From contig CAYPVU010000002.1 in assembly GCA_964414295.1 (NCBI GenBank), forward strand, positions 1-63,861: a stretch of 63,861 nucleotides of DNA, written 5' to 3'. Shown piece after piece: positions 14,130 to 58,494 of this stretch. The DNA is from an uncultured Candidatus Saccharibacteria bacterium (GTDB taxonomy: Bacteria > Patescibacteriota > Dojkabacteria > J137). The translations under genes and the position numbers were made by a program. Each line of letters starts with the position of its first letter. Position 1 is the stretch's first letter. The notes beneath the pieces were generated by a model. It was given only the letters and a program-made list of their open reading frames with translations, ran no database searches and had not been told where the DNA came from.

Positions 14130-14840
14130 ATGAGCTCTGAGGCACCGGGACCACAAAATAATAGTAGTTTTTCGCAAGGGCGAAAAATCTTAAGAGATAA
14201 TGCAAATAGAAAATTAGATTCAACAAATCAAAAATCTAGATTAATACAAAATATAGTCTCAGTACGTTATGCAGCATTAAGTCCAAGAGCAGCAGAAATT
14301 CAAGCCAATAGAGATTATAATAATGCTATTGCTGCAATTAGTGAAAGATTGCAATCAGAAAATCCTGATTTAGATGCGGCTCAGATAGCAACTCTTGCTG
14401 AACAGGAATTATTAAGCAATGCTAATTCTTTAAAGGCTTTGGTTGGATCAGGCGCGATAGCAGCAGCATCAAGGGCTAAGAAAACAATAGATAAAGCAAA
14501 AAAAATTAAAAAAGCAGCTACCGCTGCAAGGGCTTTAAAATTATCCAATCCTATAGGATGGATATGGCTTGCATTAGAGTTTTTGATTTTTACAAAAACA
14601 GGTAGAAAAGTTTTTTTAGTACTATCTTTATGTTTGTGTTGTTGTTGCATATTGGTTTTAGGATCCTTAAGTAGTATGTTGCAGTTTAGAGTTGAAAATT
14701 TAGGTGACGCAATAAAAAATTCTTCTACTCTAATCTATTGTGCTGGAGGGCAAGATTTAGTTGAGCAAACTACTTGTATGTTTGAACAAAAATCAGAAGA
14801 GTATTTACAAGATGTATATACAGATGAAGAACAAAATTAA
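14130..14840 (+). CDS. hypothetical membrane protein, first gene of a three-gene overlapping operon
   Basis: Ala/Lys-rich helical N-region, hydrophobic segments including LCLCCCCILVLG; overlaps the next ORF. Confidence 0.7.
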   Translation: MSSEAPGPQNNSSFSQGRKILRDNANRKLDSTNQKSRLIQNIVSVRYAALSPRAAEIQANRDYNNAIAAISERLQSENPDLDAAQIATLAEQELLSNANSLKALVGSGAIAAASRAKKTIDKAKKIKKAATAARALKLSNPIGWIWLALEFLIFTKTGRKVFLVLSLCLCCCCILVLGSLSSMLQFRVENLGDAIKNSSTLIYCAGGQDLVEQTTCMFEQKSEEYLQDVYTDEEQN

Positions 14841-17800
14841 TACATTTATTAAAAATATAATTAAACAATTTAAGCTTTCTAAAAGGCTACCTATAATAAT
14901 ATTTGCTACATTTATAGTTTTGTATGGTTATGCCAGCTTAAAACAAACATTAATAGAAAGTATACAAATGGGTTATATAATCCCAAATACTTTTGTTAAT
15001 TCTGTAGTAGTAGCCTTAGATGGATTCGTTAATCCCGATGGTGTGATTGCAAATGCTGTAGATATTACAAAAAAGGTTGGTTCAGGTGAATCTGTTTTAG
15101 TTGAAGATGTTTTTAGAAGATGTGAGATTCAAAGTGAAAATAGAGTTAGTAAAGCCTACTTTCAATTATACGATACAAAAACCGGAGTAAATCAAGGAGA
15201 GATGATTGGTGGAAGTGGATCAGGACAAGAGGTTCGAGATTATTTAAGATGGAAAAATAGGGCTTCATTAGATTTAGAAGCTAGTCAAATGGTAGGCATT
15301 GTTTCTAGCAGTAATCCAGATGTAGTTGCTGATTTTATTATAAAAAATAATGAGGATGGATTTATTCCAATTATTAGACTTGGAATAATTGATTTAGGAG
15401 TTTGGCCATTTGATTTAACCGAAAATAGCGATTCGTTAGTTGCCTTTTATCAAGCAATAGGGGAAAGACTAATGAATGAGAATAAAGGTTATAGAGCTGT
15501 AATTTCTTTTGGACCAAATGAGCCACATACAAATGTACCAGATACTACTCCATTTATGGGTGTAAACTATGCCACAATGGTTCAAAGACAGAATCAAGCT
15601 GCTGATAGATTACAAAAATTCAGAGTAAAAAATGGCGGACCATTCTGGTTTGCTCCTTCTATATTTAACGGAACCGAATCTTTTGTAGCTGATGGAAAAG
15701 AATATTCTTATGACATTTATCACCATTTATATATAGGTGGTATTGGTAGTACAGATAAAAACTACTGGACTCGACCAAACATAGATCCTGCTTTATTTGA
15801 TGCAATGTTAGTTAATGTATACTCAGCACCTACTAAGACTGCATGGGAGTTTTATAGAGATTTTGGTTTAAAGGAATATGTAGATGGTAGAGAAAATCTT
15901 GTAACTGTAGTTACAGAATTTGGTGCTACTCCAGATGCTACAAGTTTAACAATAGATGATTTAAAGGACGACTTTAAACAGTTATACGATGATCAAAAAA
16001 TTGAAGGTATAAACTGGTTTAGAGCAATCAAGGACATGCCTTCTATTCCTCCACAACCTCAAGAGAATCAAAGATTAGAACTATCTGACTTTATTACCTT
16101 TACGGAGCAAGCAAATAAGAATACAAAAAAGATTTCATTAAAAGTAGATTCATGGCTTAATTGTAATCTTTCCTCTACTCTTTATACTAAAAGTACTAGT
16201 GGGAATGGTGGTACAACTCCCCCATTAAATATAAAAACAAAAGGAGGCTTAAATGAAGGTACCGTTGTAGGCGGTGATTTCTCTTCACAAATAAGCAAGG
16301 CAAAAGAAGTTGGATTAAGTGGTTTTACTTTAGGTATGGCAACTAGTCCAAGTCAGGTAGATGCAACAGTAGCCTTTATAAATCAGTCTATCTCAAGTGG
16401 AATGGTACCTATTGTAAGGCTTTGTTATTTAGGCAGTCCGGGAAGCCCAAGAGGAGAAAATTGTAGTTTTGATTTATCCGGAGGCAAAACAGCCGATGTA
16501 GTTAATTTTTATAAAAGTGTAGCTCAAAGAGCAAGCGGATCTTTTATTGGTATTATTGGACCAAATGAACCGGGAACTGGTTTCCCTGAGGGCTTAGGTG
16601 AAATGAAAGGATTTGGTCTAAATAGTTACGATGAAGCTGTAGCATCTGCAAATAAAGTTGCTGCAGAACTTCAGGGTACACCAAAAATGTTGATTGCCCC
16701 GGCTGCATTTAATCTTATTAATCCTCAAAATAATGACTTTGAACAATATAGAAGTAAAGGTTTAAACGCAAGTTTATTTGATGTAATAATTGGTAATGCC
16801 TATAACGCAGATCCTTACAAGGCTGCTACCGCAATTGATGCGGCTGCAAGTTATGCAAAATCTAATGGAATGAAGTTTATTGTTACTGAAACAGGCAATA
16901 TAGTTGGCAGAACCTCTGAAGATTTTAAAAATAGTGTAGCAGCATTATGTCAAAAAGTAGATGGATTCTTAATGTTTAGATCTGTACAAGGCTTATCTCC
17001 AACTGATGGAAATTACGAAAATAAACCACAGCTTTACTCTACAGAAGAATTAAAAAACTTTGCTAGAGCTTGCGGAGGTGGAAGTAGTACTGGAGATACT
17101 TCCTCAGAAACTACAGCAGTACCCGTAGCTGATGAGTTAAGTACAGGCGGTAGTACAACTACAGCGAATGCATGTACAGGAGGTGTGCCAGAAAATCAAA
17201 TCATATTTGTTGGTGATAGTTTAACCGATTGGCTCGGAAGAAGAGTCTTTTCAGGAGTCCCAGAAAAATTTGAAATTGGAGAACCTGGTGCAAGTACTTA
17301 TTGGTTTATGCCTGGGGGTCAAAAAGGAAATACTTATTCAGATAAAGTAAAAGCTGCTGCCGCGGATACACAAGCAAAGGCTTTGTTTTTAATGCTTGGT
17401 ACTAATGATTGTGGAGGAGTTGCCGATGATGCATTTAGGAGTAATTTAACTGCTATTGTAAATTATATTAAAGCAGCTGCTCATCCTGATCTAGATATTT
17501 ATTTAAGTACTATTCCAAATTATAGAGCAGGATGTTCACCAGAAAAAATTAGTTCTTACAATAATATTATTAGAAGCGTTCAATCTTCTACAGGAGTATC
17601 TTTAAGAGATGTAGGAGATTTTGTTGAATCTGATACTACAGATGGTGTTCACTTAACTAATCAAGGTTACGAAAGAATTGCAAATAAAACTCGTGAATTA
17701 CTAGGCGGGACGTGTCCTAGTACTGGAAACAATGGAGGGTCCGGTCCAGGTGGATCCGGAGGGTCAGGCGGTACTTCTTTAGTTGCAGGTTCTACAGCTC

Positions 17801-20800
17801 TTGCGTGTGGTGTAGAACAAGATAAACCAGCAACCTTTTATCAGGGTAAAAATGCTGCTGCTTTAAGGGTTAGGTGTGCAGGAGGATCTTGTACAACAAA
17901 AAAAGTTGATACAGTAGATATAGAAGCTCCAATTAAATTATTTGCTAGTAATTCTCCAAATGGAACACTAAGAAATAGATTATCACCTGTATCACAAATT
18001 GCTGCAGCTGCATCTAATAATCCTGGTTATGATGCATTAAATATGTTTGCTGGAGAAATTAAAGTTGCCGGAAAATCTTATGCCATGCCTGGTTTAGGAA
18101 GTGCAACAAACAGCTCCTTTACTATTCTAAGAGATTCATTAACAGATAGATTTACAAAGAATCTAGGTACAAAAAGTACTGGTAGCCTTTTAAAGACAAC
18201 TCAATTGAAATTACAAAGTCAGTTAAGTGATAGTTCAACAATTCCAGTAATAGGATCTCGAGAAGTATTTGTTAATAGTACAAACACAGTTTCAATCGGA
18301 GGTGAAGATACTGATTTAGAATCGATAGATGATAGAACGGTATGTTTTGACGGAGAGTGTTACAACAATGACTCAGGATTGGCAGATTGGAGAAAAAATA
18401 TGCTTCCCTATGATCCTAGCATTGCATATCCAACATATTATGCTCCAAAAGCATGTCAAACTTCTTCAATGAAGTTTGTAAATAATCTTGATAACTATAT
18501 CACGGGTCCTGAAATGATTTTGAAACCGCAATCTACTGTATTTAGCGGAACTACTCAAGATGTTTGTTGGCTATATTCTGGAAGAAACCTACAAAGCAGA
18601 TCTCCATTAATGTCAGGAGATGGTGTAAAAACGTGCGGATATATTTTTGATACTAGAATATTTCCTGGTGCGGACATTAATGCTACTTCTCCAGATAATG
18701 ATAAACCAAAAAGAAGAATACCAATTACAACTTATGATCCATTAACAGGCACTACTATTACAACTTATCAAATTGAATATACAAATTGGACTTGTAAGGA
18801 ATTATTTGATGGAGTTGCCAATCCTAATGACAGTGTAGAAGAAGATGCTGAATTTGCAAATGCCCCTGTCCCAGGAGGAGCAAGATTACCAAAATGTGAT
18901 TTTGATGATTATGAATTTGAATTAAATAAAGGGCAAATCCCTCCTTCAGAAAGAAGTGGTAATTGCGACATTCAAGAAAAATATCAGCAATGTTTAAGAT
19001 ACGATCCTCAGGAAAGTGATCAGGTATATATTCATACAGATACTTATGAATCTGTACCAAAAGTAAGTATTCCAGAAATGTATAGTGCAATCTATGGCCT
19101 ATACGATAGATTGCAAACAATTTTAAGTCAAAGAAATGCCAAAATTATATTCCAAGAAAATATAGGAATGAAGTTAAAGGTAAACTCTAAAATAAGAGAT
19201 GCTAACGAAACTATCGCCTCTAAGCCATATAGTTACAGTAAAAGATTTGATGACTCTATTCTACCGGAATTAATAAGCAATACTATGCCTTTGGCATCTA
19301 ATAACTCTACAAAGACACAATATCAATATTTTGATGATCTTGGATATGTGGACGTACTTCAGGAATTAATAACTGCATATTCAGAAGAACATACATTATT
19401 AGGCGATCATATTATAGATAATCCATTCTTAGGAGGCAGTAATATATTTCCTGGTAGAACAAAAATTATGGCCGGAGGTACAGCAAATGTTGCCTTAGGA
19501 ACACCAATTTTAACTTGTGATCAGATAGAAATATGTAAGAGATTTACAGTAGATGAACTAGCAAGCACTTATGGTGAAAATATGGCAAGAAGATTATGTC
19601 CATTAAAAGAAAAGATTCCAGCTGGTGAAGAAAGAAATTGTATAACTTTCTTGAGTGATGATAGATATGATGACCGATTGAAAGATCAATTATGCAAAAG
19701 AGGTTTCCCTGTTGATAAAAATTGTAACTTTCAATGTTCTGTAGATGATGATGCAGATGGAGTTGACGATGATGATAATGATGATGACGGGGGAGATCCA
19801 CCAATTTCAGGATCTTATCCTAATACTGCTTGCCCTGTAGCAGATACTCAACATAGATGTTTCCAAGGACCCTATGGGACCTATACACATGGCAGTTCTA
19901 TGGGACTTCCGTTAGATTTATATCCTAACTTTACAGGAGGATCCTCTAATGCAGCTAATAGAGATAAAAGAATTGTTGCTCCAGAAGATGGAGAAGTGGT
20001 GGCTGTTATTAATGAAGGTGCACAGGGTACTAGAATTACATTAAAGGGTAAATCAGGACTGACTTATTATATTTTACATTTAAATGGTAATGACCCAAAT
20101 ATGGTTAAATCTGGACAGGTAAGAGGAGGACAAAGAATTGCTGAGATAGCTTCTCAAGCTACTGTTCCTGGTTTAGCATATAATGATGGTAATATCCATG
20201 CTCATGTTAGAGCTGAATACAATGGAAAAGATATTGATCCATATTTCTTGTTTGGACAAATTTTAAAGTGTAACGCAACTAAACCTAACGACAGTTGGGC
20301 TAACAGATTAGTATTAAATGGTGTTGTCTCTAATCCAAGAGCATACTGTGTAATTTCTTCAGGCAATACATTCCAACTTAATGATAATGGTCCAGATAAA
20401 GCAAGACAGTCAAAATCTGTAGACCCTGATACTTCAGCTTTAGATAATAATCAGGTTAAGGCTTTATTTGATGCTGCTTATGGCTCTACTACTGCATCTA
20501 CAGTAAATAATAATGCAGTTCAATCAGGCTCATCTACTAGTATCAATAGAACAATTGCCTTAGCATCTACCCCACTAAGTTCAGGAAAGGTATTAGGTAC
20601 TAGTACAGATCCAAGCGCATTTAAAATTAGAATACCTGTAAATGTCCAAACAGAAGTCTTATCTAATTATGGTCCAAGATGTTTTGAAAGAGAAGGCAGA
20701 CAATACTGTGATTACCATACAGGAGTAGATTTTGCTGAGGGAGTTAGTACAGGAGTATCAGTTGTTGCAGCAGAGTCCGGAAGGGTTATTAAAGTAGGTA

Positions 20801-21975
20801 GGGAAGCTAATGGGTATGGTAATTATGTAAGAATTGTACATCCAAATGGAATGTCAACTCTATATGCTCATAATTCTAGTGTTACTGTTGCTGAAGGTGC
20901 CTGTGTAAGGATTGGACAAGAAATTGCTAAAGCTGGGTCAACGGGTAATTCTACTGGTCCTCATGTTCATTTAGAATTAAGAAAAGATCCAAATTGTACT
21001 ATTACTGATTATTCTCAAACAACAAGTCAAAATTGTGCAGTTAATCCTAGTCAGTACATTGATCTAAACAAAACAACTTCTTACTTTACTGAAGAAGAGT
21101 TAAGAACTACATGCGATGGAGAACTTCCAGATGGAGAAGGGCCTGAAGAGGTATTGCAATGTGTACCAACAGATGATTCACCTGATATTGATTCAGGAGA
21201 AACTTATGGAAATGTATTTAGCTTGTTAGAAAAAGTTTCTGAAATTACTGGGGTGGATCAATATTTTTTGGCTGGTATTTTAAGTCTTGAAAGTGGTCCT
21301 GAGCTTCAAAAAAGTGTTGGAGATGCAATTAAAAATGGAACTGCATTATATAAAGGTGATCCTACTGACATAGGAAATCCAAATCCTAACAGTGCAGGTG
21401 CAGTAGGTCCATTTCAATTTATATGTAGAACTGGTTTATCTTACTTCTACCCTCCTAACAGTTCTAACTTACCATGTCAGCCATGGAGTGCTGGTTCCAC
21501 AGGAAGATATTACAATAAAGTATTATCTTGTGTTAAAGCTTTGGGTATGAGTTACAACGATGGAGACATTTTAGATCCTAAATATTTTGGTGTAGGTGCA
21601 TGTGGTGCAGCGACTATGTTTAGTGGTTTAGAAGGTCAGTCAATATCAGCATACGATATTAATAATTCTTCTGCTCGAAGTAATTCGAATCCTTTCTGGA
21701 AAGCAGCAGGTGGATATAATGGAGGTGGAAACTTTGAAAATATTCCTATTTCTAAATGGTACGCAGATAGTACAGTAGGAAGAGCTCATTTCTTTAAAAA
21801 ATACTGGAATGAATATAAAAGTGGAGATAAAGGTAGTGATTGTAAGCCCAATGCTTATAAAGATTGGTATTTCTACCATGTAAGTTTAGGTATAGAATGT
21901 ATATCTAGAGGTCCTCAAGACGGACAGTGTAGAATTACAACAGAGTCAGCATTAAATAATGAATGCCAAAGATAA
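14761..21975 (+). CDS. giant membrane-anchored multi-domain hydrolase (2x GH-A-like barrels, SGNH esterase, 2x M23 peptidase, SLT/lysozyme-like); probable start 14812 or 14824
   Basis: NEP/TEFG and NEP/TETG pairs; GDSL...GTND...DGVH; HTGVD...HVH and H...D...HAH; ILSLES...GPFQF...YNGG. Confidence 0.85.
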   Translation: MSKLLVCLNKNQKSIYKMYIQMKNKINTFIKNIIKQFKLSKRLPIIIFATFIVLYGYASLKQTLIESIQMGYIIPNTFVNSVVVALDGFVNPDGVIANAVDITKKVGSGESVLVEDVFRRCEIQSENRVSKAYFQLYDTKTGVNQGEMIGGSGSGQEVRDYLRWKNRASLDLEASQMVGIVSSSNPDVVADFIIKNNEDGFIPIIRLGIIDLGVWPFDLTENSDSLVAFYQAIGERLMNENKGYRAVISFGPNEPHTNVPDTTPFMGVNYATMVQRQNQAADRLQKFRVKNGGPFWFAPSIFNGTESFVADGKEYSYDIYHHLYIGGIGSTDKNYWTRPNIDPALFDAMLVNVYSAPTKTAWEFYRDFGLKEYVDGRENLVTVVTEFGATPDATSLTIDDLKDDFKQLYDDQKIEGINWFRAIKDMPSIPPQPQENQRLELSDFITFTEQANKNTKKISLKVDSWLNCNLSSTLYTKSTSGNGGTTPPLNIKTKGGLNEGTVVGGDFSSQISKAKEVGLSGFTLGMATSPSQVDATVAFINQSISSGMVPIVRLCYLGSPGSPRGENCSFDLSGGKTADVVNFYKSVAQRASGSFIGIIGPNEPGTGFPEGLGEMKGFGLNSYDEAVASANKVAAELQGTPKMLIAPAAFNLINPQNNDFEQYRSKGLNASLFDVIIGNAYNADPYKAATAIDAAASYAKSNGMKFIVTETGNIVGRTSEDFKNSVAALCQKVDGFLMFRSVQGLSPTDGNYENKPQLYSTEELKNFARACGGGSSTGDTSSETTAVPVADELSTGGSTTTANACTGGVPENQIIFVGDSLTDWLGRRVFSGVPEKFEIGEPGASTYWFMPGGQKGNTYSDKVKAAAADTQAKALFLMLGTNDCGGVADDAFRSNLTAIVNYIKAAAHPDLDIYLSTIPNYRAGCSPEKISSYNNIIRSVQSSTGVSLRDVGDFVESDTTDGVHLTNQGYERIANKTRELLGGTCPSTGNNGGSGPGGSGGSGGTSLVAGSTALACGVEQDKPATFYQGKNAAALRVRCAGGSCTTKKVDTVDIEAPIKLFASNSPNGTLRNRLSPVSQIAAAASNNPGYDALNMFAGEIKVAGKSYAMPGLGSATNSSFTILRDSLTDRFTKNLGTKSTGSLLKTTQLKLQSQLSDSSTIPVIGSREVFVNSTNTVSIGGEDTDLESIDDRTVCFDGECYNNDSGLADWRKNMLPYDPSIAYPTYYAPKACQTSSMKFVNNLDNYITGPEMILKPQSTVFSGTTQDVCWLYSGRNLQSRSPLMSGDGVKTCGYIFDTRIFPGADINATSPDNDKPKRRIPITTYDPLTGTTITTYQIEYTNWTCKELFDGVANPNDSVEEDAEFANAPVPGGARLPKCDFDDYEFELNKGQIPPSERSGNCDIQEKYQQCLRYDPQESDQVYIHTDTYESVPKVSIPEMYSAIYGLYDRLQTILSQRNAKIIFQENIGMKLKVNSKIRDANETIASKPYSYSKRFDDSILPELISNTMPLASNNSTKTQYQYFDDLGYVDVLQELITAYSEEHTLLGDHIIDNPFLGGSNIFPGRTKIMAGGTANVALGTPILTCDQIEICKRFTVDELASTYGENMARRLCPLKEKIPAGEERNCITFLSDDRYDDRLKDQLCKRGFPVDKNCNFQCSVDDDADGVDDDDNDDDGGDPPISGSYPNTACPVADTQHRCFQGPYGTYTHGSSMGLPLDLYPNFTGGSSNAANRDKRIVAPEDGEVVAVINEGAQGTRITLKGKSGLTYYILHLNGNDPNMVKSGQVRGGQRIAEIASQATVPGLAYNDGNIHAHVRAEYNGKDIDPYFLFGQILKCNATKPNDSWANRLVLNGVVSNPRAYCVISSGNTFQLNDNGPDKARQSKSVDPDTSALDNNQVKALFDAAYGSTTASTVNNNAVQSGSSTSINRTIALASTPLSSGKVLGTSTDPSAFKIRIPVNVQTEVLSNYGPRCFEREGRQYCDYHTGVDFAEGVSTGVSVVAAESGRVIKVGREANGYGNYVRIVHPNGMSTLYAHNSSVTVAEGACVRIGQEIAKAGSTGNSTGPHVHLELRKDPNCTITDYSQTTSQNCAVNPSQYIDLNKTTSYFTEEELRTTCDGELPDGEGPEEVLQCVPTDDSPDIDSGETYGNVFSLLEKVSEITGVDQYFLAGILSLESGPELQKSVGDAIKNGTALYKGDPTDIGNPNPNSAGAVGPFQFICRTGLSYFYPPNSSNLPCQPWSAGSTGRYYNKVLSCVKALGMSYNDGDILDPKYFGVGACGAATMFSGLEGQSISAYDINNSSARSNSNPFWKAAGGYNGGGNFENIPISKWYADSTVGRAHFFKKYWNEYKSGDKGSDCKPNAYKDWYFYHVSLGIECISRGPQDGQCRITTESALNNECQR

Positions 21976-22504
21976 TATGAAAGCCTTAATAGAAAAAATA
22001 AAAAATTTTAGTAAGAACTTAACTTTTGAAAAGTCTTTTGGAATATTAGTAGCTATATTCCTTTTATCGATATTACTAATAGCAGTTACTTCCCCCTCTA
22101 CTCTAAATGATATTGTTACACCTTCACAAAATGGTGTGCCAAGAGCTCCGTTAAATTCAGATCCTTATGCAAATTCAGTCGATCCAAATCAATTAACAAG
22201 AGGACGTGGAGATGCTTATTATTATCAATACGGACAAATTGTTATTGAAGAAAAGGACACAGCAACTTATTACTACCAAAGAAAACCTACAGATTCCGAG
22301 TTAGATATGATTAAAAGGCAACTAGGAGTAGAGTTCATTAATTTGGTAGACGAAACGTATAAGGCAGTTGAAAGAACAGAACCTGGTCCTCTTTTGGAAC
22401 CCCCTACCAGCGAGGAAGAAGTTATATTAAATCTACCTAGAGTTGGTGTTGAGCAATCCGATGAAGGAATTGGTCCTGATGCTGTAGTTGATGGTGAAGA
22501 GTAA
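21959..22504 (+). CDS. hypothetical membrane-anchored protein
   Basis: TM near the N-terminus; start overlaps the end of the giant ORF. Confidence 0.7.
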   Translation: MNAKDNMKALIEKIKNFSKNLTFEKSFGILVAIFLLSILLIAVTSPSTLNDIVTPSQNGVPRAPLNSDPYANSVDPNQLTRGRGDAYYYQYGQIVIEEKDTATYYYQRKPTDSELDMIKRQLGVEFINLVDETYKAVERTEPGPLLEPPTSEEEVILNLPRVGVEQSDEGIGPDAVVDGEE

Positions 22505-25500: not shown

Positions 25501-25668
25501 TTAGGGATGGAAAATAATACAAGAAAAATTAATGCTAAAGCATTTAAGCAATTTAACAGAAATGATAAAGTCTCTGTAAGATATAGTAATGGTGAGATTT
25601 TAAAAGATGTTAAATTTAAGAAAGTAGAAAACGATTTAATAAATGGGAAAGCAGTTATTGTAGATTAA
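22600..25668 (+). CDS. secA: preprotein translocase ATPase SecA
   Basis: Motifs TGEGKT, IIDEADSILIDEARTPLIISG, ATNMAGRG, HESRRIDNQLRGR, QKDPLVEYK. Confidence 0.98.
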   Translation: MIKKVLPSFDLNQRQIKSTEKAFQKIKELKEPVSKMSYEDMQKRIQEMKEEINKLVEEIPFEKKLSLRKIDRTKPLAKEEVAIQNKLNEFLPEVYAFMDEVFFRKVGFRYHDVQLRAGIILAQGQRLVELYTGEGKTMTFQLPLVLYSIAGRGAHLVTVNDYLSRRDGEYAGHIASALGLSVGIISSTASYKFVNDDQLKFVKGEGAAELRGNMHAIQISNMDGINLVECSKRDSYNCDITYGTNNEFGFDYLRDNMSWDLNNISQRELYFCIIDEADSILIDEARTPLIISGIPTDANVGKYNSFASAVKDLVEGEHYELDHKTRTVVLTEQGIELVENRLGVENLWKDYSMAYHIENALKAQTMFNRDEHYLVKGGEVLIVDEFTGRILKGRRYSEGLHQAIEAKEGVEVRQESKTYATITFQNFFRLYKVLCGGSGTVMTEAEEFYKIYGLETVSIPTNRPVVRIDYPDQIYKNQTAKYRAVVAEIKEKHSKGQPVLVGTTSVEKSELISQLLDAEQIPHEVLNAKYHEQEAKIIEKAGRKGAVTVATNMAGRGADIVIGGGSRGDEAYLEIRELGGLHVIGTERHESRRIDNQLRGRTGRQGEPGSSRFYVALDDQLMRILGGDMMGRLMNSVGMDENLPIELKLISKQIESAQKRIEGMNFDARKRIVDYDDVMNQHREIFYSRRRKFLQSAEEASGKFVENGQLVTVSSLTKELQQSYDNKINSAQDNLVKIINSLVNDEVKTFIENQLNGNKKWNKESISTIVKNFTEMIPASILAKVLNIQTSKVNEYLVEELLKDKSDKAQKYLLDLANKVIEQKRTEFNKEFAYVTKAITLQTMDNIWVDHLELMKDIRDGIGLQAYAQKDPLVEYKNEAYNVFESFIQNINKDVVKQILSIQKLTPEMVNAQPQFDNITTNQAQVEDVLTEDREFVSTDVYDQKVLASSLVGRLESERKSNAVVGGLGMENNTRKINAKAFKQFNRNDKVSVRYSNGEILKDVKFKKVENDLINGKAVIVD

Positions 25669-25693
25669 AAAATCCCTCGGAAGAGGGATTTTT
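25668..25693. terminator. bidirectional intrinsic terminator
   Basis: AAAAATCCCTC-GGAA-GAGGGATTTTT. Confidence 0.85.
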
Positions 25694-25696
25694 ATT

Positions 25697-26872
25697 TTAT
25701 AACTTTAAATTCCCTTCTCCGCCAAGCTTCCAATAAGCTATTCCGTTAATGCCATACTCAGCTGCTAATTGTTTTCTAACTTCTATAGATTTATTACTTG
25801 GAAATACAGCAGCTCTAATCTGTCCATTAAAATTATATTTCCCAATAACTTCTCCCCATGTATCTACATACTCTTCTTCTACAACATAGTTATTAAAAAG
25901 CTTTACTAGTCCATCTCCATAATAAGCAACTCCATCACCTCCGGTATATCCTATAAAAAACTGCTCTCCAAAGTAATCTAAATCGTATCTTATTGGATCT
26001 TTTATACTCCAATCCATTGTGTATGTATGTATTCCAAGCACAATCTTTTCTCTTGGAATACCAATTTTAATTGAATATCTTATTACATCTTCTAACCAGG
26101 CTAATGGTCCAACCGGTCCTAAAGGATCTTGTGCTATAGAATATCCATAGCCTTGCAATTTTATTTTATCTGCAAATTTAGCCAGTTTAGGATAATCTAA
26201 AGCTGCTTTTGTTTGCCCATAGGGGAAATTATCTCCCCATTTTGATAGTAGACTTAAATGCAATTGCTTATTATTTCTTTTTAACTCATTACTTAATGTT
26301 TCAATTAAATCTAGGAGTACTTTATGATCATTTACATAGATATGTTCAAAATCAAGATCAATTCCATCGTAGCTGTAATTTAATACGTTAGACATGACTT
26401 CGTTAATGAATCGTTGACTATTTTCTTTAGAATTTAAAACCTTTGTCAGCTTATCTCTTTCAAAAGATGTAATTGCTGGAACTAATTCAATATTATTTTG
26501 TTTAGTATAGTTTAATAGTACTGACCAGTTTGTATATGGATTCGCTTTTAGAGAGCCATCTTCATTTAAATCAAACCAAAATGGACTAATGCTTGTTATG
26601 TGAGGATTATTTTTTAGTGTATCTAACCCGCTTTGCATCCCCCAATCAGGAATCCAACCGTAGTATTGTAGACTATTTGTATCTTTAGGATCTTTTTGTA
26701 CAGATCTAATTTGTTCTATTTCTAAATCAAATTCACTTTTATTAGAGTTATATATAGTAAATTCATTAAGTTTTTCTATGTCTACAGTATTAGGATTATT
26801 GTATTTTTGAAATGCTATATAGCTTAATGCGCCAATTGCTATAGTTAGAATAATTACAATAATAAACCTCAT
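25697..26872 (-). CDS. membrane-anchored glycoside hydrolase family 18 protein
   Basis: N-terminal TM; intact DGIDLDFE (DxxDxDxE) motif; GIAYWKLG C-terminus. Confidence 0.9.
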   Translation of the reverse strand: MRFIIVIILTIAIGALSYIAFQKYNNPNTVDIEKLNEFTIYNSNKSEFDLEIEQIRSVQKDPKDTNSLQYYGWIPDWGMQSGLDTLKNNPHITSISPFWFDLNEDGSLKANPYTNWSVLLNYTKQNNIELVPAITSFERDKLTKVLNSKENSQRFINEVMSNVLNYSYDGIDLDFEHIYVNDHKVLLDLIETLSNELKRNNKQLHLSLLSKWGDNFPYGQTKAALDYPKLAKFADKIKLQGYGYSIAQDPLGPVGPLAWLEDVIRYSIKIGIPREKIVLGIHTYTMDWSIKDPIRYDLDYFGEQFFIGYTGGDGVAYYGDGLVKLFNNYVVEEEYVDTWGEVIGKYNFNGQIRAAVFPSNKSIEVRKQLAAEYGINGIAYWKLGGEGNLKL

Positions 26873-33951: not shown

Positions 33952-33955
33952 GTTG

Positions 33956-34384
33956 TTATGGATTGATGCAGAGAAAATCTCCATCTCTTGTCCATCCAGC
34001 CTGCTGAGCAGGAGGTACGCCTTCTGCTGTCACGCAGAGAGTGTCATCCACCCCAACTGGAATGGTCTGACCACCCACCTGCAATGTAGCAGACGATCCG
34101 TTCACAGTGAAGGTGAATCCCGTAGGATCCGCCATCCACCGATCCCTTGTCCCATTCTGGTGGCGAACCTGTACGTCCACCCGCCCAACAGGCGGAATGT
34201 CCGTTCCCGGAATGTTTGTGGGCATTATCTGTCTACCCGTCCCCATATCTGTGCCTCTGCGAAGCGAGATGGCAGTCGATGCGATGAGAACCAGTACCAA
34301 CAGAATCACCCCGATGATGAGCAGTCGCCGGCAACCCCGACGCCAGCTCTTTTTCTTAGTGCTAGTCTGAGCCATTTCTGACAT
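33956..34384 (-). CDS. GC-rich small membrane-anchored protein with two Cys
   Basis: Basic N-terminus, long hydrophobic helix, beta-rich ectodomain; SD-like GAGAGG. Confidence 0.7.
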   Translation of the reverse strand: MSEMAQTSTKKKSWRRGCRRLLIIGVILLVLVLIASTAISLRRGTDMGTGRQIMPTNIPGTDIPPVGRVDVQVRHQNGTRDRWMADPTGFTFTVNGSSATLQVGGQTIPVGVDDTLCVTAEGVPPAQQAGWTRDGDFLCINP

Positions 34385-34447
34385 CCTCTCTGTTGTCCAA
34401 GACTAATAACATTACAACATATATAGCAGTTATATTTTTAGATATGT

Positions 34448-34477
34448 AAAAGGGGACGCCTAACGGCGTCCCCTTTT
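34448..34477. terminator. intrinsic terminator
   Basis: AAAAGGGGACGCC-TAAC-GGCGTCCCCTTTT. Confidence 0.85.
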
Positions 34478-34478
34478 G

Positions 34479-34802
34479 TTAAGGAGTGAAGGAGTCTGCT
34501 CTGAAGCACCCGTTTTCGGGGTTCTCCTCGTCCAGCTCTGCTCTCGCATGTAGCTGGTAGTATACCCTGTTTAGCGGGACGCACACCTCGTCTTCGCCGC
34601 TTAAGCGAAGCTCGAAGTTTGTGCCGGCTGTTACGCGCAGCACGGTGTAATCCGCCGCTTGGTCAAACTCCACCAGTTCACCTTCTTCCAGCACCACTTG
34701 GTACTGGTAAGTAATTCCGCTTTGATAGTGAACTGAGAGTGTAACCTCAGGTGTTTGCACACCTCCAAACAGGGCAATTAAAAACAGCAGCCATTCGAAC
34801 AC
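34479..34802 (-). CDS. small secreted or anchored protein with two Cys (start reassigned to the GTG at 34802)
   Basis: AGGAGG SD 6 nt before the in-frame GTG; hydrophobic N-terminus. Confidence 0.7.
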   Translation of the reverse strand: MFEWLLFLIALFGGVQTPEVTLSVHYQSGITYQYQVVLEEGELVEFDQAADYTVLRVTAGTNFELRLSGEDEVCVPLNRVYYQLHARAELDEENPENGCFRADSFTP

Positions 34803-34888
34803 TTCGATTCCTCCTACTAAAAATAGCAATAAAATTATTATCTTATATACTGATTATATTCAATAGGGCGCCATTGGCGCCTTACTTT

Positions 34889-35239
34889 CTAGAAGTCTTC
34901 TACACTGTATCCTTCGTTAAGAAGACTTCCAATGCAGATTCTTTGATCAGGATCTAGTCCAATACTTCTATATTCTTCAAAGAATACCTCTAAACCTAAG
35001 GTACTATACAAACATAGCAATTCCCTTGGTTCTAATTCAAAGGTAAGTCTCTGTTGAATCCAGGTAATTTTACTGTAGTCAGCGTTAACCGAAAATGACG
35101 GTTCGCTATCTAAAGTAAATTCCTGTTTATAGATCCCTTCAATTTGTACCATTAATGATGAGGTAGGTCTTGCGGCGAATGCAAAGCCAATTACAGCAAT
35201 GATTATGATTGCTGCAAGTGCAATTACATATACTTTCAC
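34889..35239 (-). CDS. small secreted or anchored protein with two Cys
   Basis: TATAAT and AAGGAG SD upstream of the GTG; signal/TM N-terminus. Confidence 0.7.
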   Translation of the reverse strand: MKVYVIALAAIIIIAVIGFAFAARPTSSLMVQIEGIYKQEFTLDSEPSFSVNADYSKITWIQQRLTFELEPRELLCLYSTLGLEVFFEEYRSIGLDPDQRICIGSLLNEGYSVEDF

Positions 35240-35322
35240 GATGTCTCTCCTTCTTGGTAACTATATTATACCAAACTCCTATAAGTTAATAAATTTGATA
35301 TAATCTGTAGTTAAATCGTTTT

Positions 35323-36432
35323 ATGACTTTACTAGAAAATATAAATACAATTAAAGAGCGTATTGATGCAATTGTGGCTAAAAAGAATCTTAGCAAGCTC
35401 ATGTCAGAAAGGGATGAATTAGCCTCTAAAACTATGACTGATGGATTTTGGAGTAATAATGATGAAGCTCAAAAAACTATGCAGAAGTTAGGTGGGCTTA
35501 ATGAAGAGATTGCAGATGTAAACAACCTTGTAAAAGGTATTGAAGATATTCAGGAGCTTGCAGAAGACGATTCTGTAGCTTCAATAAAAGATCAGTCAGA
35601 AGAAGATACAAATGAAATCGCTCAAATGATTAGAGCTGGTTTAGGAGAGTTAGAGATGAAGGTAGAGGAAGTTGAACTTACTACTTTTTTAAGCGGTAAA
35701 TTTGATACTAATAATGCTATTGTTAAGATAATCGCTGGGCAGGGCGGTACAGAGGCATGTGATTGGGCTAGTATGGTTTTAAGAATGTATACCAGGTATG
35801 CTAATTCTAAAGGTTGGAACGTTTTAATTTTAGATAAGGTAGATGGTAATGAAGCTGGTATTGCAAGTGCAGAGCTTTTAATAGAGGGCAGATATGCATA
35901 TGGTTACTTAAAGCATGAGCATGGCACTCATAGATTGGTTAGAAATTCTCCATTTAATGCGCAGGGGTTAAGACAAACTTCTTTTGTAGGAGTTGAAGTA
36001 TTGCCAGAAGTAAATGAAGATATTGATATCGAAGTAAAAGACGAAGATTTAGAATTTAGTGCAGTAAGAAGTGGTGGTGCAGGAGGTCAGAATGTAAATA
36101 AAGTAGCTTCAAAAGTTAGAATTGTCCATAAACCTACAGGGATAGTAGTTGAATCTTCCAGTCAAAGAACGCAGCATGCCAATAGAGAGACAGCAATGAG
36201 ATTGTTGAAAGCAAGGTTGTACGAAATTGAAGAAGATAAGCAAAAAGCAGAAATGGCAAAGGCAAAAGGGGAGTATAAGATTGCAGGTTGGGGTAATCAA
36301 ATTAGAAACTATGTTTTACAACCATATAAATTGGTCAAGGACGTTAGAACGGAAGTAGAAACTCCTAATTCCGATGGTGTCCTTGACGGAGATATTCAGA
36401 TGTTTATTGATGCAGAAATAAGAATGCTTTAA
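35323..36432 (+). CDS. prfB: peptide chain release factor 2 (no programmed frameshift evident)
   Basis: SPF anticodon-mimic (RNSPFN) and GGQ motif; continuous ORF from the ATG. Confidence 0.95.
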
Positions 36433-38777: not shown

Positions 38778-39845
38778 TTGGGTATGTCCCAAATTCGAAG
38801 AACTAAATCTAAAAGATATTTAGAAGGTGCTACCTTTTTTACGTCTGAACTAAAACGAAGCATTGTTAGCAGAATGTTTTGGGGAAGAAGCAGCCTTTAT
38901 AAAAATGTTATCCACTTTTTAGTAATTTTAATAACAATATCAGTTACTTTAAGTGGAATTATTTATAGAGTATCTGATGTTAGTGCCAGTGGATCTGCAT
39001 TAAGTGGAGAATATACTATCGGTTCAAATGATTTATTAACTCAGGGAGGTTCTATAGCGACTGTACTTAGAACAGATAATACTAATCTGAGTGCTCTCCA
39101 GAATACTAAATATACTGTACAAGCTGGTGATAGTTTAGCTTCTATCTCAGAAAAATTTAATGTAACAATGGATACTGTTAGATGGGCTAATCCTAACCTT
39201 ATTAGTCCATTTACAAATGATATTCAAGTAGGGTGGGAATTAGCTATTCCACAAATTAATGGAGTTTTATACACTGTGCGATCCGGCCAATCTTTAGATG
39301 AAATTATTTCCTTAACAAGTGTTAATAATAGTGAATCAAATAGATTTAATATAATTGAATTAAATCAGCTCTCCCCTCCCTACAATCTAACACCGGGCAC
39401 TAAGTTATTTATTCCGGATGGAAATCTTTATAGACAGGATATTAATGTTCAGGGTATTCCTGTTGGAATATTTATTGATCCTTTGTCCAGTCCTGACTGT
39501 AATGGATATCAATACCAAAGAGGCTATACTTATTATCATGATGGTATTGATCTTTCTAAATGGGATGGTTGCAATATACAAGCCGTAGCAAATGGAACAG
39601 TTTACTATGCAGGATGGGAAAACCTTTCAGGATTAACAGTAAAGATTGACCATGGTGGGGGGATTCATACTTACTACTACCATTTATCAGATATCTATGT
39701 ATCTCCTGGTAATAGAGTTCAACAGGGACAATCTATCGGATACATGGGAAATACAGGAAATAGTACAGGAACCCACCTTCACTTTGTTTTAAAGAAAGAT
39801 TACATTGCGGTAGACCCTGAGCCATACGTACCATATAATAAATAA
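38778..39845 (+). CDS. LysM plus M23 peptidase protein
   Basis: TM; LysM YTVQAGDSLASIS and YTVRSGQSL; M23 HDGID...HLH. Confidence 0.92.
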   Translation: MGMSQIRRTKSKRYLEGATFFTSELKRSIVSRMFWGRSSLYKNVIHFLVILITISVTLSGIIYRVSDVSASGSALSGEYTIGSNDLLTQGGSIATVLRTDNTNLSALQNTKYTVQAGDSLASISEKFNVTMDTVRWANPNLISPFTNDIQVGWELAIPQINGVLYTVRSGQSLDEIISLTSVNNSESNRFNIIELNQLSPPYNLTPGTKLFIPDGNLYRQDINVQGIPVGIFIDPLSSPDCNGYQYQRGYTYYHDGIDLSKWDGCNIQAVANGTVYYAGWENLSGLTVKIDHGGGIHTYYYHLSDIYVSPGNRVQQGQSIGYMGNTGNSTGTHLHFVLKKDYIAVDPEPYVPYNK

Positions 39846-41242: not shown

Positions 41243-43816
41243 ATGGATCCAGTAACTTTTCTTCTAATAATAATATTCTTTGTTGCGTTTACATTTGCAG
41301 CTAATATTGTTTTGCAAAGATATTACAACCTTCTAGTAAAAGTTAATGAGACAGTAGCAGATAAAGTAATATTAAAAATAGCCGTACCAGTAAGAAATGA
41401 TAAAAAAGCCTTAGCTGCAGAACAAATGTTTCAATCTTTGCACGGAATATTAAAGGGAGATAAATTAAGCAAGGATCATTACTCTTTTGAAATATTTGCT
41501 GCTAATCATGGTATATATTTTGTTGTAGTTTGCTCTAATAGATATAGACCATTTCTAGAAAATCAGATATATGCACAATACCCCGAGGCCCAAATAAATG
41601 TAGTCCCCGATTATGCAGTACTGCATCCTCTAGATAAAACAGCAGTTAGTGAATTAGTATTAGAAAAAGATTTCTTTTTACCAATTAGAACATTTACTAG
41701 TTTTGAAGTCGATCCCCTAGCTTCCATTACAAGTGCTGTTTCTAACTTAACTCCAGGATTTGAAGTTTGGATACAAGTATTATCAAGACCAATAAATAAT
41801 GAATGGCAAACAAAGGGAAAAGAATTTGTAGAAAAGATGAAGAATCAAAAGGATGCTGCTGGTAATAAAAAGGAACCGGATTCATCTGTGGTAGAAACGT
41901 TTGGAGATATTTCTAGAAAGTCAGATAAGGTTGGGTTTCAATTTAAAATAAGAATTGTAGGAAAAGGACCAGATGAAAATATTGTAAAAAGATTAGTTGA
42001 AGATACTGAAGCTTCTTTTAAGCAGTTTCAAACTACTAAGCTAAATAGTATTGTAAAACCTAAACCTAAAAAGAAAAATGCCTTAGAAAAATATTTGGAT
42101 GATTTAAATAAAAAAATTACCTTTTTTATAAGTGGTAAAAGATTGGGCGATAAAATTAACGGGATACAAAAATATCAGCTTAGATATTTAGATGAAAGGG
42201 AGAAAAATATTATTAATATTGAAGAATTAGCATCTTTGTATCACTTGCCTAATGAGTCTGTAAAAACTCCAAATGTTGCATGGGCTAAATCTAGAAAACT
42301 TGAATTTCCTTTAAACCTACCCGTCTTAAAGCAAGATCCATTACAAAATCAAGGAATAAGAGCTTTAGCATTGACAGATTATAGAAATATTCATTTACCT
42401 TTTGGGATAAAAGCTGAAGACAGAAGAAGACATATGTATTTACTAGGTAAAACTGGTACAGGTAAATCTACATTCTTAAAAAATATGATTGTTGGAGATA
42501 TTTTAGATGGAAATGGTTTAGCAGTATTAGATCCTCACGGTGACTTAGTAGAAGAAATTTTAGATTTAATTCCAGAGCATAGAATAAAAGATGTTATTTA
42601 TTTAGATCCTTCTGATGTAGAGTATCCAATTGGATTAAACATGTTAGATTTAAATGAGGGCGAAACTTTAGATTTACTTGCTGATGGTATTGTAAACGTA
42701 TTTAAAAAGTTTTTTGGAGAGATGAGTTGGGGGCCAAGACTTCAGCATTTACTTTATAATACTGTAGCTACTCTGCTTCACTGTCAGAACGTATCTTTAC
42801 TTGCTGTCTTAAGAATCTTAAACGATAAAAATTATAGAACCTTTTTATTAAAACAAGTAAAGGATCCATTCTTAATTAAATTCTGGGAAGAGGAATATGC
42901 TCAATTAAGTATAAATCCTAGATTGTTAGCAGAAGCGGTAGCCCCAATTCAAAATAAGGTAGGTAGATTCTTAGGATCTACAATGGTTAGAAATATGATC
43001 GGCCAAATTAAATCAAATGTAAATTTAGCCGATGTAATGAATTCGGGTAAGATTTTATTAGTAAATCTGTCACAAGGAAAAATTGGAGAAGAAAGTTCTT
43101 CGCTTCTTGGAGCTATGATTGTAACAAGATTGTATTCAAATGCTATGCAAAGGGCCAGAATGGCTAAAGAAGATAGAAGAGACTTTTACTTATATGTAGA
43201 TGAATTTCAGAATTTTGCAACAGAGTCATTTATTAAGATATTATCGGAAGCTAGAAAGTATGGGTTAAATCTTATTGTAACTCATCAGTATATAGATCAA
43301 ATTGATCCTAAAATTCAAGATGCTATCTTTGGTAACATTGGTACTTTAATGAATTATGTTGTAAGTCAAAAAGATGGGGGCAGATTAGAAAAAGAATATA
43401 CCCCATACTTAGGTGTAGAAGATTTAGTAAATTTAGATAAGTACAGAATTGCAATGAAAATGACTGTGGATATGGCTCAAACCCCTCCATTTACTGCAAT
43501 TGCTATGAAGCCAAGCTACTATACTTATGGTTTAAAAGATCAAGTTAAAGAGTTTTGTAGGAAAACCTATGCAAAGCCTAGAGCTGAGGTAGAATTAAAA
43601 CTTAATAAATGGGCAAGCCAGTTATACGATAAGCAAGGTAATTTAGTACAAAGAAATCCAGATGGATCTTTACCTACTGGTGTTACTACACCAGCCCAAC
43701 AAATTGAAGCTGCCGCAGCTGCTCCAGCATATCCAAAAAAGAAGAAAAAGAAACCTAACAAACCAAATTCTGGTGGAAATAGTCAGCCTCAAAATTCTAA
43801 CCAACCTACAAAATAA
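41243..43816 (+). CDS. VirD4/TraD/TrwB-like P-loop ATPase (coupling-protein family)
   Basis: N-terminal TM; RRRHMYLLGKTGTGKST; LYVDEFQNF; SEARKYGL.L.VTHQY. Confidence 0.88.
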   Translation: MDPVTFLLIIIFFVAFTFAANIVLQRYYNLLVKVNETVADKVILKIAVPVRNDKKALAAEQMFQSLHGILKGDKLSKDHYSFEIFAANHGIYFVVVCSNRYRPFLENQIYAQYPEAQINVVPDYAVLHPLDKTAVSELVLEKDFFLPIRTFTSFEVDPLASITSAVSNLTPGFEVWIQVLSRPINNEWQTKGKEFVEKMKNQKDAAGNKKEPDSSVVETFGDISRKSDKVGFQFKIRIVGKGPDENIVKRLVEDTEASFKQFQTTKLNSIVKPKPKKKNALEKYLDDLNKKITFFISGKRLGDKINGIQKYQLRYLDEREKNIINIEELASLYHLPNESVKTPNVAWAKSRKLEFPLNLPVLKQDPLQNQGIRALALTDYRNIHLPFGIKAEDRRRHMYLLGKTGTGKSTFLKNMIVGDILDGNGLAVLDPHGDLVEEILDLIPEHRIKDVIYLDPSDVEYPIGLNMLDLNEGETLDLLADGIVNVFKKFFGEMSWGPRLQHLLYNTVATLLHCQNVSLLAVLRILNDKNYRTFLLKQVKDPFLIKFWEEEYAQLSINPRLLAEAVAPIQNKVGRFLGSTMVRNMIGQIKSNVNLADVMNSGKILLVNLSQGKIGEESSSLLGAMIVTRLYSNAMQRARMAKEDRRDFYLYVDEFQNFATESFIKILSEARKYGLNLIVTHQYIDQIDPKIQDAIFGNIGTLMNYVVSQKDGGRLEKEYTPYLGVEDLVNLDKYRIAMKMTVDMAQTPPFTAIAMKPSYYTYGLKDQVKEFCRKTYAKPRAEVELKLNKWASQLYDKQGNLVQRNPDGSLPTGVTTPAQQIEAAAAAPAYPKKKKKKPNKPNSGGNSQPQNSNQPTK

Positions 43817-58430: not shown

Positions 58431-58494
58431 TATCTTATCCAGGTAATAGTTATTAAACAATGGAATTATATAATATACAAACCCTTTGTAGTAG

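Follow-up and report, generated by a model that had tools for sequence, protein, structure and literature searches.

A conserved locus in Dojkabacteria encodes a giant multi-domain protein with predicted envelope-hydrolase modules

The giant gene and its product

The DNA analyzed here (hereafter the window) is a 63,861-nt stretch of contig CAYPVU010000002.1, in assembly GCA_964414295.1 from an uncultured Candidatus Saccharibacteria bacterium that GTDB places in Dojkabacteria (J137). On its forward strand lies a giant gene whose product very probably is an extracytoplasmic multi-enzyme wall hydrolase. The predicted protein joins an N-terminal hydrophobic segment to two barrels of the glycoside hydrolase (GH) clan A type, an SGNH hydrolase, a large cysteine-rich middle domain, two M23 peptidase domains and a lysozyme-like domain.

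A first-pass annotation had assigned about 2,400 residues to the open reading frame (ORF) at 14761-21975. The frame is indeed open: the maximal ORF (14761-21975, + strand) begins at TTG 14761 and runs through 2,404 uninterrupted codons. Its length, however, comes down to 2,387 residues with the likely translation start at ATG 14812, which we prefer because AGAAGAG precedes it at 14795-14801 and because the gene call of a 95%-identical relative (P0001) begins MYIQMKNK. Residues are numbered below as (nt - 14809)/3 + 1, counted from this ATG. The G+C content of the gene resembles that of the surrounding DNA. The gene and its predicted modules, in window coordinates, are as follows.

14812..21975, + strand: giant gene, 2,387 residues plus stop, frame intact
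14884..14943, + strand: hydrophobic segment, residues 26-45 LPIIIFATFIVLYGYASLK, after a Lys/Arg-rich N-terminus
14962..15171, + strand: conserved region of about 70 residues (52-121) between anchor and barrel 1, 63-74% identity among relatives
15172..16203, + strand: barrel 1, GH-A-like (beta/alpha)8, with NEP at 15517-15525 and TEFG at 15913-15924
16204..17118, + strand: barrel 2, GH-A-like (beta/alpha)8, with NEP at 16564-16572 and TETG at 16885-16896
17206..17688, + strand: SGNH/GDSL hydrolase domain, with GDS at 17212, GTND at 17398 and DGVH at 17641
17716..17778, + strand: Gly/Ser-rich linker, read from the translation
17779..19743, + strand: middle domain, 655 residues with 19 Cys, forming with the barrel the core of a wider family
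19744..19797, + strand: poly-Asp linker, read from the translation
19801..20313, + strand: M23a, divergent M23 peptidase domain, with HAH at 20191-20199
20314..20613, + strand: Ser/Thr/Asn-rich linker, 66-121 residues long and 27-38% identical among relatives
20614..21006, + strand: M23b, canonical M23 peptidase domain, with HTGVD at 20716 and HVH at 20962
21181..21972, + strand: SLT/GH23-like domain, with Glu at 21289-21291, GPFQF, YNGG and a four-Cys tail

Every motif quoted in the first-pass annotation is present in the translation where it had been placed. The motifs correspond to residues 237-239 (NEP) and 369-372 (TEFG) in barrel 1, 586-588 (NEP) and 693-696 (TETG) in barrel 2, 802-804 (GDS), 864-867 (GTND) and 945-948 (DGVH) in the SGNH domain, 1970-1974 (HTGVD) and 2052-2054 (HVH) in M23b, and Glu2161 in the C-terminal domain. 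A search of 5.8 billion protein clusters provided eight full-length relatives (P0001-P0008) with 95-53% identity to the query; since this word-indexed search missed clusters of the very collection it searches (for example, P0011), that number understates the size of the family. In the alignment of full-length relatives (nine, at 46-96% identity), both NEP motifs, the T-E-x-G of both barrels, GDS, GTND and His948 are invariant, as are His1970/Asp1974, His2052/His2054 and Glu2161. The motif set goes far beyond chance, which confirms that the original observation was real.

Residues 26-45 contain the sole 19-residue windows scoring above 1.5 in a Kyte-Doolittle scan of the whole protein, and most relatives checked have one hydrophobic segment at the equivalent place. 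The segment fits an N-terminal anchor: it may be a signal-anchor or a signal peptide, uncleaved or cleaved at a possible site between GYA and S. Membrane anchoring of the giant protein is thus plausible. The conserved region that follows (residues 52-121) is present in 11 of 158 family proteins and has no Pfam or PHROG match. The whole protein contains 48 cysteines, including the 19 of the middle domain.

Catalytic modules and the middle domain

In hhalign, the two barrels prove homologous to each other (probability 99.2%, E = 3.5e-19), and NEP and TExG of one barrel fall in the same columns as those of the other. For barrel 2, AlphaFold2 was run on 16 barrel sequences and gave a model with eight strand-helix units and high scores (predicted local distance difference test, pLDDT, 86; predicted template modeling score, pTM, 0.88). 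In this model, NEP (model residues 121-123) lies just past strand 4 (114-117) and TETG (228-231) at the end of strand 7 (224-230). Foldseek comparison of the model with the PDB gave 295 matches at E <= 0.001 (best E = 1.8e-9, template modeling scores 0.55-0.59), of which the top 50 all belong to clan GH-A: GH53 galactanases, GH26 lichenases/mannanases, GH5, GH1 and GH72. Pfam matches in the barrels of relatives likewise all fall in this clan (PF11790, Glyco_hydro_cc, in 4 of 72, best E = 2.4e-6; PF00150, Cellulase, in 1 of 72), and the Pfam match of P0072 overlaps the barrel. Against PDB sequences, the barrel profile had a sole match, at E = 0.73, to a TIR/DUF4062 protein that is not a glycosidase. 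The model and its structural neighbors, with one glutamate motif after strand 4 and the other on strand 7, strongly bear out the earlier proposal of GH-A-like barrels. The case for a GH-A-like fold and catalytic residues is strong, and by sequence the barrels stand outside all curated families. They are predicted to be of the retaining type, likely acting on wall-associated or capsular polysaccharide.

The SGNH domain, also named in the first-pass annotation, is equally well founded. It scores above the Pfam cut-off for PF13472 (53.5 bits against 32.9, E = 5.5e-14) and for PF00657 (24.8 bits against 23.6), its catalytic blocks are present, and Ser804, Asn866 and His948 are invariant among full-length relatives. 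Its best match among PDB sequences, 2hsj, is insignificant (E = 0.31). Most plausibly, this domain would remove the O-acetyl groups that block muramidases.

M23 peptidase domains account for a whole-protein Pfam score of 116.9 bits. The second domain, M23b, matches M23 peptidases among PDB sequences, including LytM, lysostaphin and ShyA, with E values as low as 1e-15. Its zinc-binding and catalytic residues (His1970, Asp1974, His2021, His2052 and His2054) are all invariant among full-length relatives, in strong support of the canonical M23 assignment. The first domain, M23a, had been described as a divergent M23, and Pfam recovers it on its own (PF01551, 34.1 bits against a cut-off of 28.7, E = 3.2e-8). 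Its first zinc motif is non-canonical: in HGSSMGLPLD the His stands nine residues before the Asp, with Gly at the canonical His position. The segments YTH, LPLDLYP, LHLNGND and NIHxH are kept in the five relatives that possess M23a; in P0005-8 the slot is taken by VanY. As the profile-profile match between M23a and M23b is weak (E = 0.017), the identity of M23a rests on Pfam. We regard M23a as a genuine M23 domain whose predicted activity could have been kept or lost.

The assignment of the C-terminal domain was the weakest of the set. An iterated profile over the collected family proteins recruited about 32 such domains, with the conserved pattern E...GDP...GPMQF...C..LG...G.ALCAAA.K...RYYG.C. 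Compared with the PDB, a 26-sequence profile produced 10 weak matches, all to goose-type lysozyme, phiKZ gp144 or Slt35/MltB (GH23/GH103-type) and all aligned at the catalytic Glu. In hhalign, the match to a reference of E. coli Slt70, EmtA, MltC and MltD reached 85.8% (E = 5.4e-6) and brought the catalytic Glu (E-S) and the GLMQ motif into alignment; ten control profile pairs gave 0.6% or less. Pfam run on 26 family members touched SLT once (0.0017) and SLT_2 once (0.048). A transitive link through SLT_3 was rejected: the two distant barrel relatives that match this family are other proteins than those picked by the profile (P0091, P0070). The SLT-like label of the first-pass annotation thus receives moderate support in the form of remote homology to lytic transglycosylases, but the query itself matches no Pfam SLT family. 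It is reasonably supported that the domain is lysozyme-like, with either transglycosylase or hydrolase chemistry.

The middle domain, noted at first as a Cys-rich region, does hold 19 Cys in 655 residues and is also among the best conserved parts of the protein, with a confident model. It is 61-62% identical among close relatives and occurs in 59 of 158 family proteins. Across 25 sequences, with identities down to 23%, 42 positions are near-invariant, among them GPE1235, R1259, RD1463-4, QE1518-9 and CD1570-1. Its AlphaFold2 model (pLDDT 84, pTM 0.80) found no structural match with Foldseek (best E = 1.0 in the PDB and 0.8 in BFVD, template modeling scores at most 0.07), and profile searches gave no match in Pfam, PHROGs or PDB sequences. 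The domain contains no internal repeat and is unrelated to the rest of the protein's domains. It is possibly a new fold. The middle domain could recognize a substrate or target, or could be a new extracellular catalytic module; its conserved acidic and basic positions, and the many disulfides that it probably contains, would fit either role. In seven relatives (P0014, P0016, P0019, P0045, P0051, P0053 and P0054), the SGNH domain interrupts the middle domain behind the first ~90 residues of the latter instead of preceding it. The middle domain thus tolerates a large insertion at this point, and is probably made of at least two sub-domains.

A conserved core with exchanged modules at a syntenic locus

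The family extends well beyond the full-length relatives. An exhaustive hidden Markov model search with the barrel profile collected 193 clusters (43 at E < 1e-30), mostly of 1400-2400 residues with the barrel near the N-terminus. Local domain mapping showed that about 55 of these share barrel and middle domain. This core consists of an N-terminal hydrophobic segment, the barrel and the middle domain, usually with an M23 domain and sometimes with an SGNH or lysozyme-like domain. A Pfam census of 28 members counted M23 (19), GDSL (6), NAGPA (5), VanY (4), M15_4 (3), M14 (1) and Amidase_2 (1). Among the nearest relatives, the N-terminal two-thirds are 47-74% identical and identity falls to 16-18% at the M23a slot and the C-terminus, because modules have been swapped there. 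P0005-8 illustrate this exchange: they keep the N-terminal two-thirds, carry VanY in the place of M23a, and end in a different, longer C-terminus.

Two relatives carry an organism name, both Candidatus Dojkabacteria, and genome matches are labeled Dojkabacteria, Patescibacteria or, for one metagenome-assembled genome, Saccharibacteria. Scans with family alignments located one further locus only in metagenome contigs; in IMG/VR viral contigs, they found a relative of neither the barrel nor the middle domain. Existing annotations of the relatives read 'M15 family metallopeptidase', 'MepM/NlpD', 'LdcB', 'exopolysaccharide biosynthesis protein' or 'hypothetical', and the literature searched contains no description of the giant protein family. 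The initial remark that this domain combination was not recognized is therefore fair as far as sources with generic names go, but the protein is not a one-off: it belongs to a conserved, syntenic family. Two metagenomic proteins of ~4000 residues (P0009 and P0010) have only M23 in common with the query; PF18760 occurs in both and PF18814 in P0010, and their architecture appears unrelated to that of the giant protein.

The gene order is the same in the window and in three related loci (L001, L003 and L004): ClpB (- strand), an ORF of ~240 residues, the giant gene, an ORF of 150-180 residues, SecA, GH18 (- strand) and RmuC (- strand). In L010 and L012, SecA again follows ClpB, the giant gene and a small transmembrane ORF. 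A giant gene with the same core is present in every related genome checked, and only P0089 lies outside this slot. More distant members are arranged as follows.

P0046: barrel, SGNH, middle domain and two M23a domains; in the ClpB slot, followed by a small transmembrane ORF and then SecA
P0161: barrel, SGNH, middle domain, M23b and NAGPA; in the ClpB slot, followed by a small transmembrane ORF and then SecA
P0024: barrel, middle domain, M23b and VanY; in the ClpB slot, with a small transmembrane ORF
P0089: rearranged domain order; elsewhere in the genome

P0046, P0161 and P0024 are positional orthologues of the giant gene with different module sets. The immediate surroundings of the giant gene in the window comprise three further features.

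14130..14840, + strand: upstream 236-residue membrane protein, the end of which overlaps the start of the giant gene
21959..22504, + strand: downstream 181-residue single-transmembrane protein, the start of which overlaps the giant stop by 17 nt
25668..25693, + strand: terminator-like hairpin of 11 pairs, the strongest found, directly after secA; consensus match only

The upstream protein has a Cys-rich membrane segment, LSLCLCCCCILVLG, and its sole Pfam match, to VIT1, is below threshold. Its ORF is found only in the closest relatives and is absent before P0046, P0161 and P0024. The downstream position is filled more regularly: in each of the loci checked (the window, L001, L003, L004, L010, L011, L012 and L013), the giant gene is followed by an ORF of 140-235 residues, and all eight translations read have an N-terminal hydrophobic stretch resembling a single-transmembrane anchor. 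This ORF diverges fast, similarity being detectable within sub-clades only. Its product could be a partner, a regulator or an immunity protein; as regards an effector-immunity logic, no delivery domain was recognized in the giant protein. Between the giant stop at 21975 and the hairpin at 25668 there is no terminator-like site; the + strand has four weaker matches, each located within the giant gene or secA. The genes from the giant gene to secA may thus form an operon.

Beyond secA, a GH18 gene (25700-26872, - strand; a family of chitinases and endo-beta-N-acetylglucosaminidases) is kept in several related loci and may encode another wall- or glycan-active enzyme of the neighborhood. Further along the window, a 355-residue protein with LysM and M23 domains (38778-39842, + strand) is encoded two genes upstream of an 857-residue ATPase (41243-43813, + strand), with a ferric-reductase-like membrane protein between them. 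The ATPase, ~19 kb from the giant gene, has weak matches to TrwB/VirD4 coupling proteins and to HerA (DUF87). Together they may represent a module for secretion or DNA translocation, either minimal or remnant.

Elsewhere in the window, a class II tRNA synthetase of the aspartyl/lysyl type with a C-terminal DUF2000 (E = 3.6e-25; 56460-58460, - strand) looks like an unusual fusion. The segment 34001-36000 has a local G+C content of 0.42 compared with about 0.32 elsewhere. Two 142-residue ORFs overlap on opposite strands at 33953-34384, and tandem 116-residue ORFs occupy 34479-34829 and 34889-35239 on the - strand. At gathering threshold, Rfam detects three tRNAs only in the whole window, none of them at 34001-36000.

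Possible roles and relation to known systems

We propose that the giant protein acts as a Sec-exported, probably N-terminally tethered, polyvalent depolymerase of the cell envelope. Its Gly/Ser, poly-Asp and Ser/Thr linkers would be flexible, so that the modules could act sequentially on one patch of wall. The barrels, together in relatives with NAGPA phosphodiester glycosidases, would clear wall-linked polymers, after which the SGNH esterase would strip the O-acetyl groups that stand in the way of muramidases. The M23 peptidases, or in relatives VanY and M15 peptidases, would then cut cross-links and stems, and the lysozyme/lytic-transglycosylase-like domain would cut the glycan strands. Across the family, the peptidoglycan-cleaving modules have been swapped repeatedly on a conserved core.

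Whose wall would be opened is a separate matter. The first-pass annotation had inferred a toolkit with which an epibiont breaches a host cell wall, a role that is plausible. Our preferred reading, to which we give at most about an even chance, is that the protein would open or digest a host or prey cell's envelope where the two cells touch. Module swapping, the breadth of activities, the separate LysM-M23 protein and the fast-evolving partner ORF all argue for a foreign wall. The LysM-M23 protein implies that the giant protein is not the sole cross-link peptidase, and the fast-diverging, anchored ORF always stands after the giant gene, as would be expected by analogy of an immunity or partner protein. 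A bolder extension is doubtful in our view: the middle domain would be a new fold that cleaves walls or recognizes targets and would form, with the barrel, a Dojkabacteria-wide single-locus envelope-breaching protein, the C-terminal modules of which would track host wall chemistry while the downstream ORF provided a cognate immunity or control factor.

Several observations weigh against the main proposal. The neighbors are housekeeping genes (ClpB, SecA, RmuC and an MraY-like GT4) and inheritance looks vertical, which would fit an essential autolysin equally well. A Pfam scan of 20 window ORFs revealed no type IV secretion or pilus genes adjacent to the giant gene. The organism encodes peptidoglycan-related machinery of its own (a sortase, the MraY-like protein and LysM-M23), making a self-directed role feasible. 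An own-wall target is suggested by the core-gene status, the housekeeping neighbors, the N-terminal tether and the absence of a delivery system. As to the enzymes themselves, the query barrels match no Pfam (E <= 10), NCBIfam or PHROG family, and the query C-terminal domain matches no curated family, with no match in Pfam (E <= 10), PHROGs, PDB sequences (close-family profile) or phage genomes (tblastn); the substrates named for both are guesses. The juxtaposition of the two barrel glutamates is deduced from strand positions in the model, and M23a is without a canonical HxxxD motif.

The strongest competing explanation is a housekeeping autolysin: as the main wall-remodeling enzyme of the lineage, it would be tethered to the membrane of its producer and would serve growth, division or turnover by cutting the peptidoglycan and wall polymers of that cell, with the small downstream protein as its regulator. 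Such a gene would be expected to be core, syntenic and vertically inherited, as is the giant gene, which occupies the clpB-side slot in all close genomes and in three distant ones. Its anchor would hold the protein at the surface of the producer, reduced genomes often fuse functions, and autolysins classically contain M23, VanY/M15 and lytic transglycosylase modules. However, related genomes differ by swaps of the peptidoglycan-cleaving modules, although the chemistry of a cell's own wall is expected to be stable. Two GH-A barrels, with NAGPA in relatives, exceed the content of known autolysins, 2,387 residues in seven modules are far above the usual autolysin size, and a separate, conventional LysM-M23 protein is encoded in the window. 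On balance, we find a housekeeping autolysin rather unlikely, if well worth keeping in mind.

Nutrient scavenging seems improbable. Here, a surface depolymerase would digest wall debris or extracellular polysaccharide to feed a fermentative cell unable to make its building blocks. The combination of glycosidase, esterase and peptidase modules would suit such a role, as would the GH18 gene conserved nearby (25700-26872) and the M14 or M15 carboxypeptidases and NAGPA domains of relatives; moreover, many biosynthetic pathways are absent from Patescibacteria (PMC13293708). However, no transporter or muropeptide catabolic genes are adjacent among the window ORFs scanned, polymers are usually degraded by several separate secreted proteins rather than by one anchored chain, and the conserved partner ORF is left unexplained. 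We attach hardly any weight to an accessory of a type IV secretion system (T4SS) or pilus, that is, a VirB1/PrgK/CwlT-like hole-punching enzyme opening peptidoglycan for a trans-envelope machine. An N-terminal anchor with M23 and SLT-like domains does recall PrgK-type hydrolases of monoderm conjugation systems, and the TrwB/HerA-like ATPase lies ~19 kb away. VirB1 homologues in Patescibacteria are, for their part, mostly not beside virB4 (10.1101/2025.01.22.634366). Yet none of the 8 loci examined has VirB4, VirB6, VirD4 or pilus genes next to the giant gene, VirB1-like proteins have no counterpart of the barrels, SGNH and middle domain, and no relatives occur on viral contigs (plasmids were not searched). 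T4SS or conjugation was rejected as the primary context, the neighbors being ClpB, SecA, GH18 and RmuC in the window and most related loci.

Little is known of how the ultra-small bacteria of the candidate phyla radiation (CPR), or Patescibacteria, pass or feed on the envelopes of the cells that sustain them. In the literature searched, the only peptidoglycan hydrolases tied to epibiotic growth are the peptidase and lysozyme homologues beside virB4 in Southlakia (10.1101/2025.01.22.634366). A single conserved and easily recognized gene with modules that vary between genomes is thus a testable candidate. The locus also brings to light an unclassified GH-A branch of about 190 clusters without a curated family, and a large, well-modeled middle domain without structural relative. 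If the host wall is the target, the type of host might become predictable from the module content of a genome, with no further data; under the envelope-breaching reading, the locus would mark host range in genomes, and an uncultured CPR class would have its first candidate enzyme for opening a host wall. With the organism's own wall as the target, a reduced genome would have condensed its autolytic machinery into one protein.

Modular autolysins, anchored conjugation hydrolases and phage virion lysins are the known systems closest in organization, but none combines GH-A barrels, SGNH and the middle domain, and none is a syntenic chromosomal core gene. PrgK (pCF10), TraG (pIP501) and CwlT (ICEBs1) possess an N-terminal anchor and several peptidoglycan-cutting modules, including M23/LytM-like and SLT-like domains. 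These are proteins of ~300-900 residues, encoded inside T4SS operons and equipped with CHAP or NlpC/P60 domains, whereas the giant protein has 2,387 residues, a chromosomal location beside clpB and secA, GH-A barrels, an SGNH domain and a 655-residue core. Bifunctional lysins associated with phage virions penetrate a foreign wall from outside. Like the giant protein, such lysins (phi29 gp13, lysozyme-like plus M23) and M23-containing internal or tape-measure proteins carry a glycan-cutting and an M23 module on one chain, and the PDB M23 matches of the giant protein include phage Gp16 and an 'internal protein'. The giant gene differs in being cellular and syntenic, with no relatives in IMG/VR and no phage tblastn match for its C-terminal domain. 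An SLT+CHAP form of anchored conjugation hydrolases has also been described (10.1101/2025.01.22.634366).

Single modules have nearest counterparts of their own. M23b shares all catalytic and zinc residues with LytM/lysostaphin-type enzymes (E of about 1e-10 to 1e-15), differing as one module of seven. The SGNH domain has the GDS, GxND and DxxH blocks of Ape1-type esterases and OatA/PatB-type SGNH domains, a likeness of blocks rather than of subgroup; its pairing with a muramidase-like domain would make de-O-acetylation a logical function. With Family 1 lytic transglycosylases and GH23 goose-type lysozymes, the C-terminal domain has in common the Glu in an E-S context, G-P-x-Q-F as the equivalent of GLMQ, and Y-N-G-G, and it differs by extra Cys-rich insertions and a tail. 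Finally, the barrels resemble clan GH-A enzymes, the nearest by structure being GH53 endo-beta-1,4-galactanases, GH26 and GH5, in the (beta/alpha)8 architecture, the NEP after strand 4 and the Glu on strand 7; they are set apart by their tandem duplication and by their embedding in a chain of peptidoglycan hydrolases.

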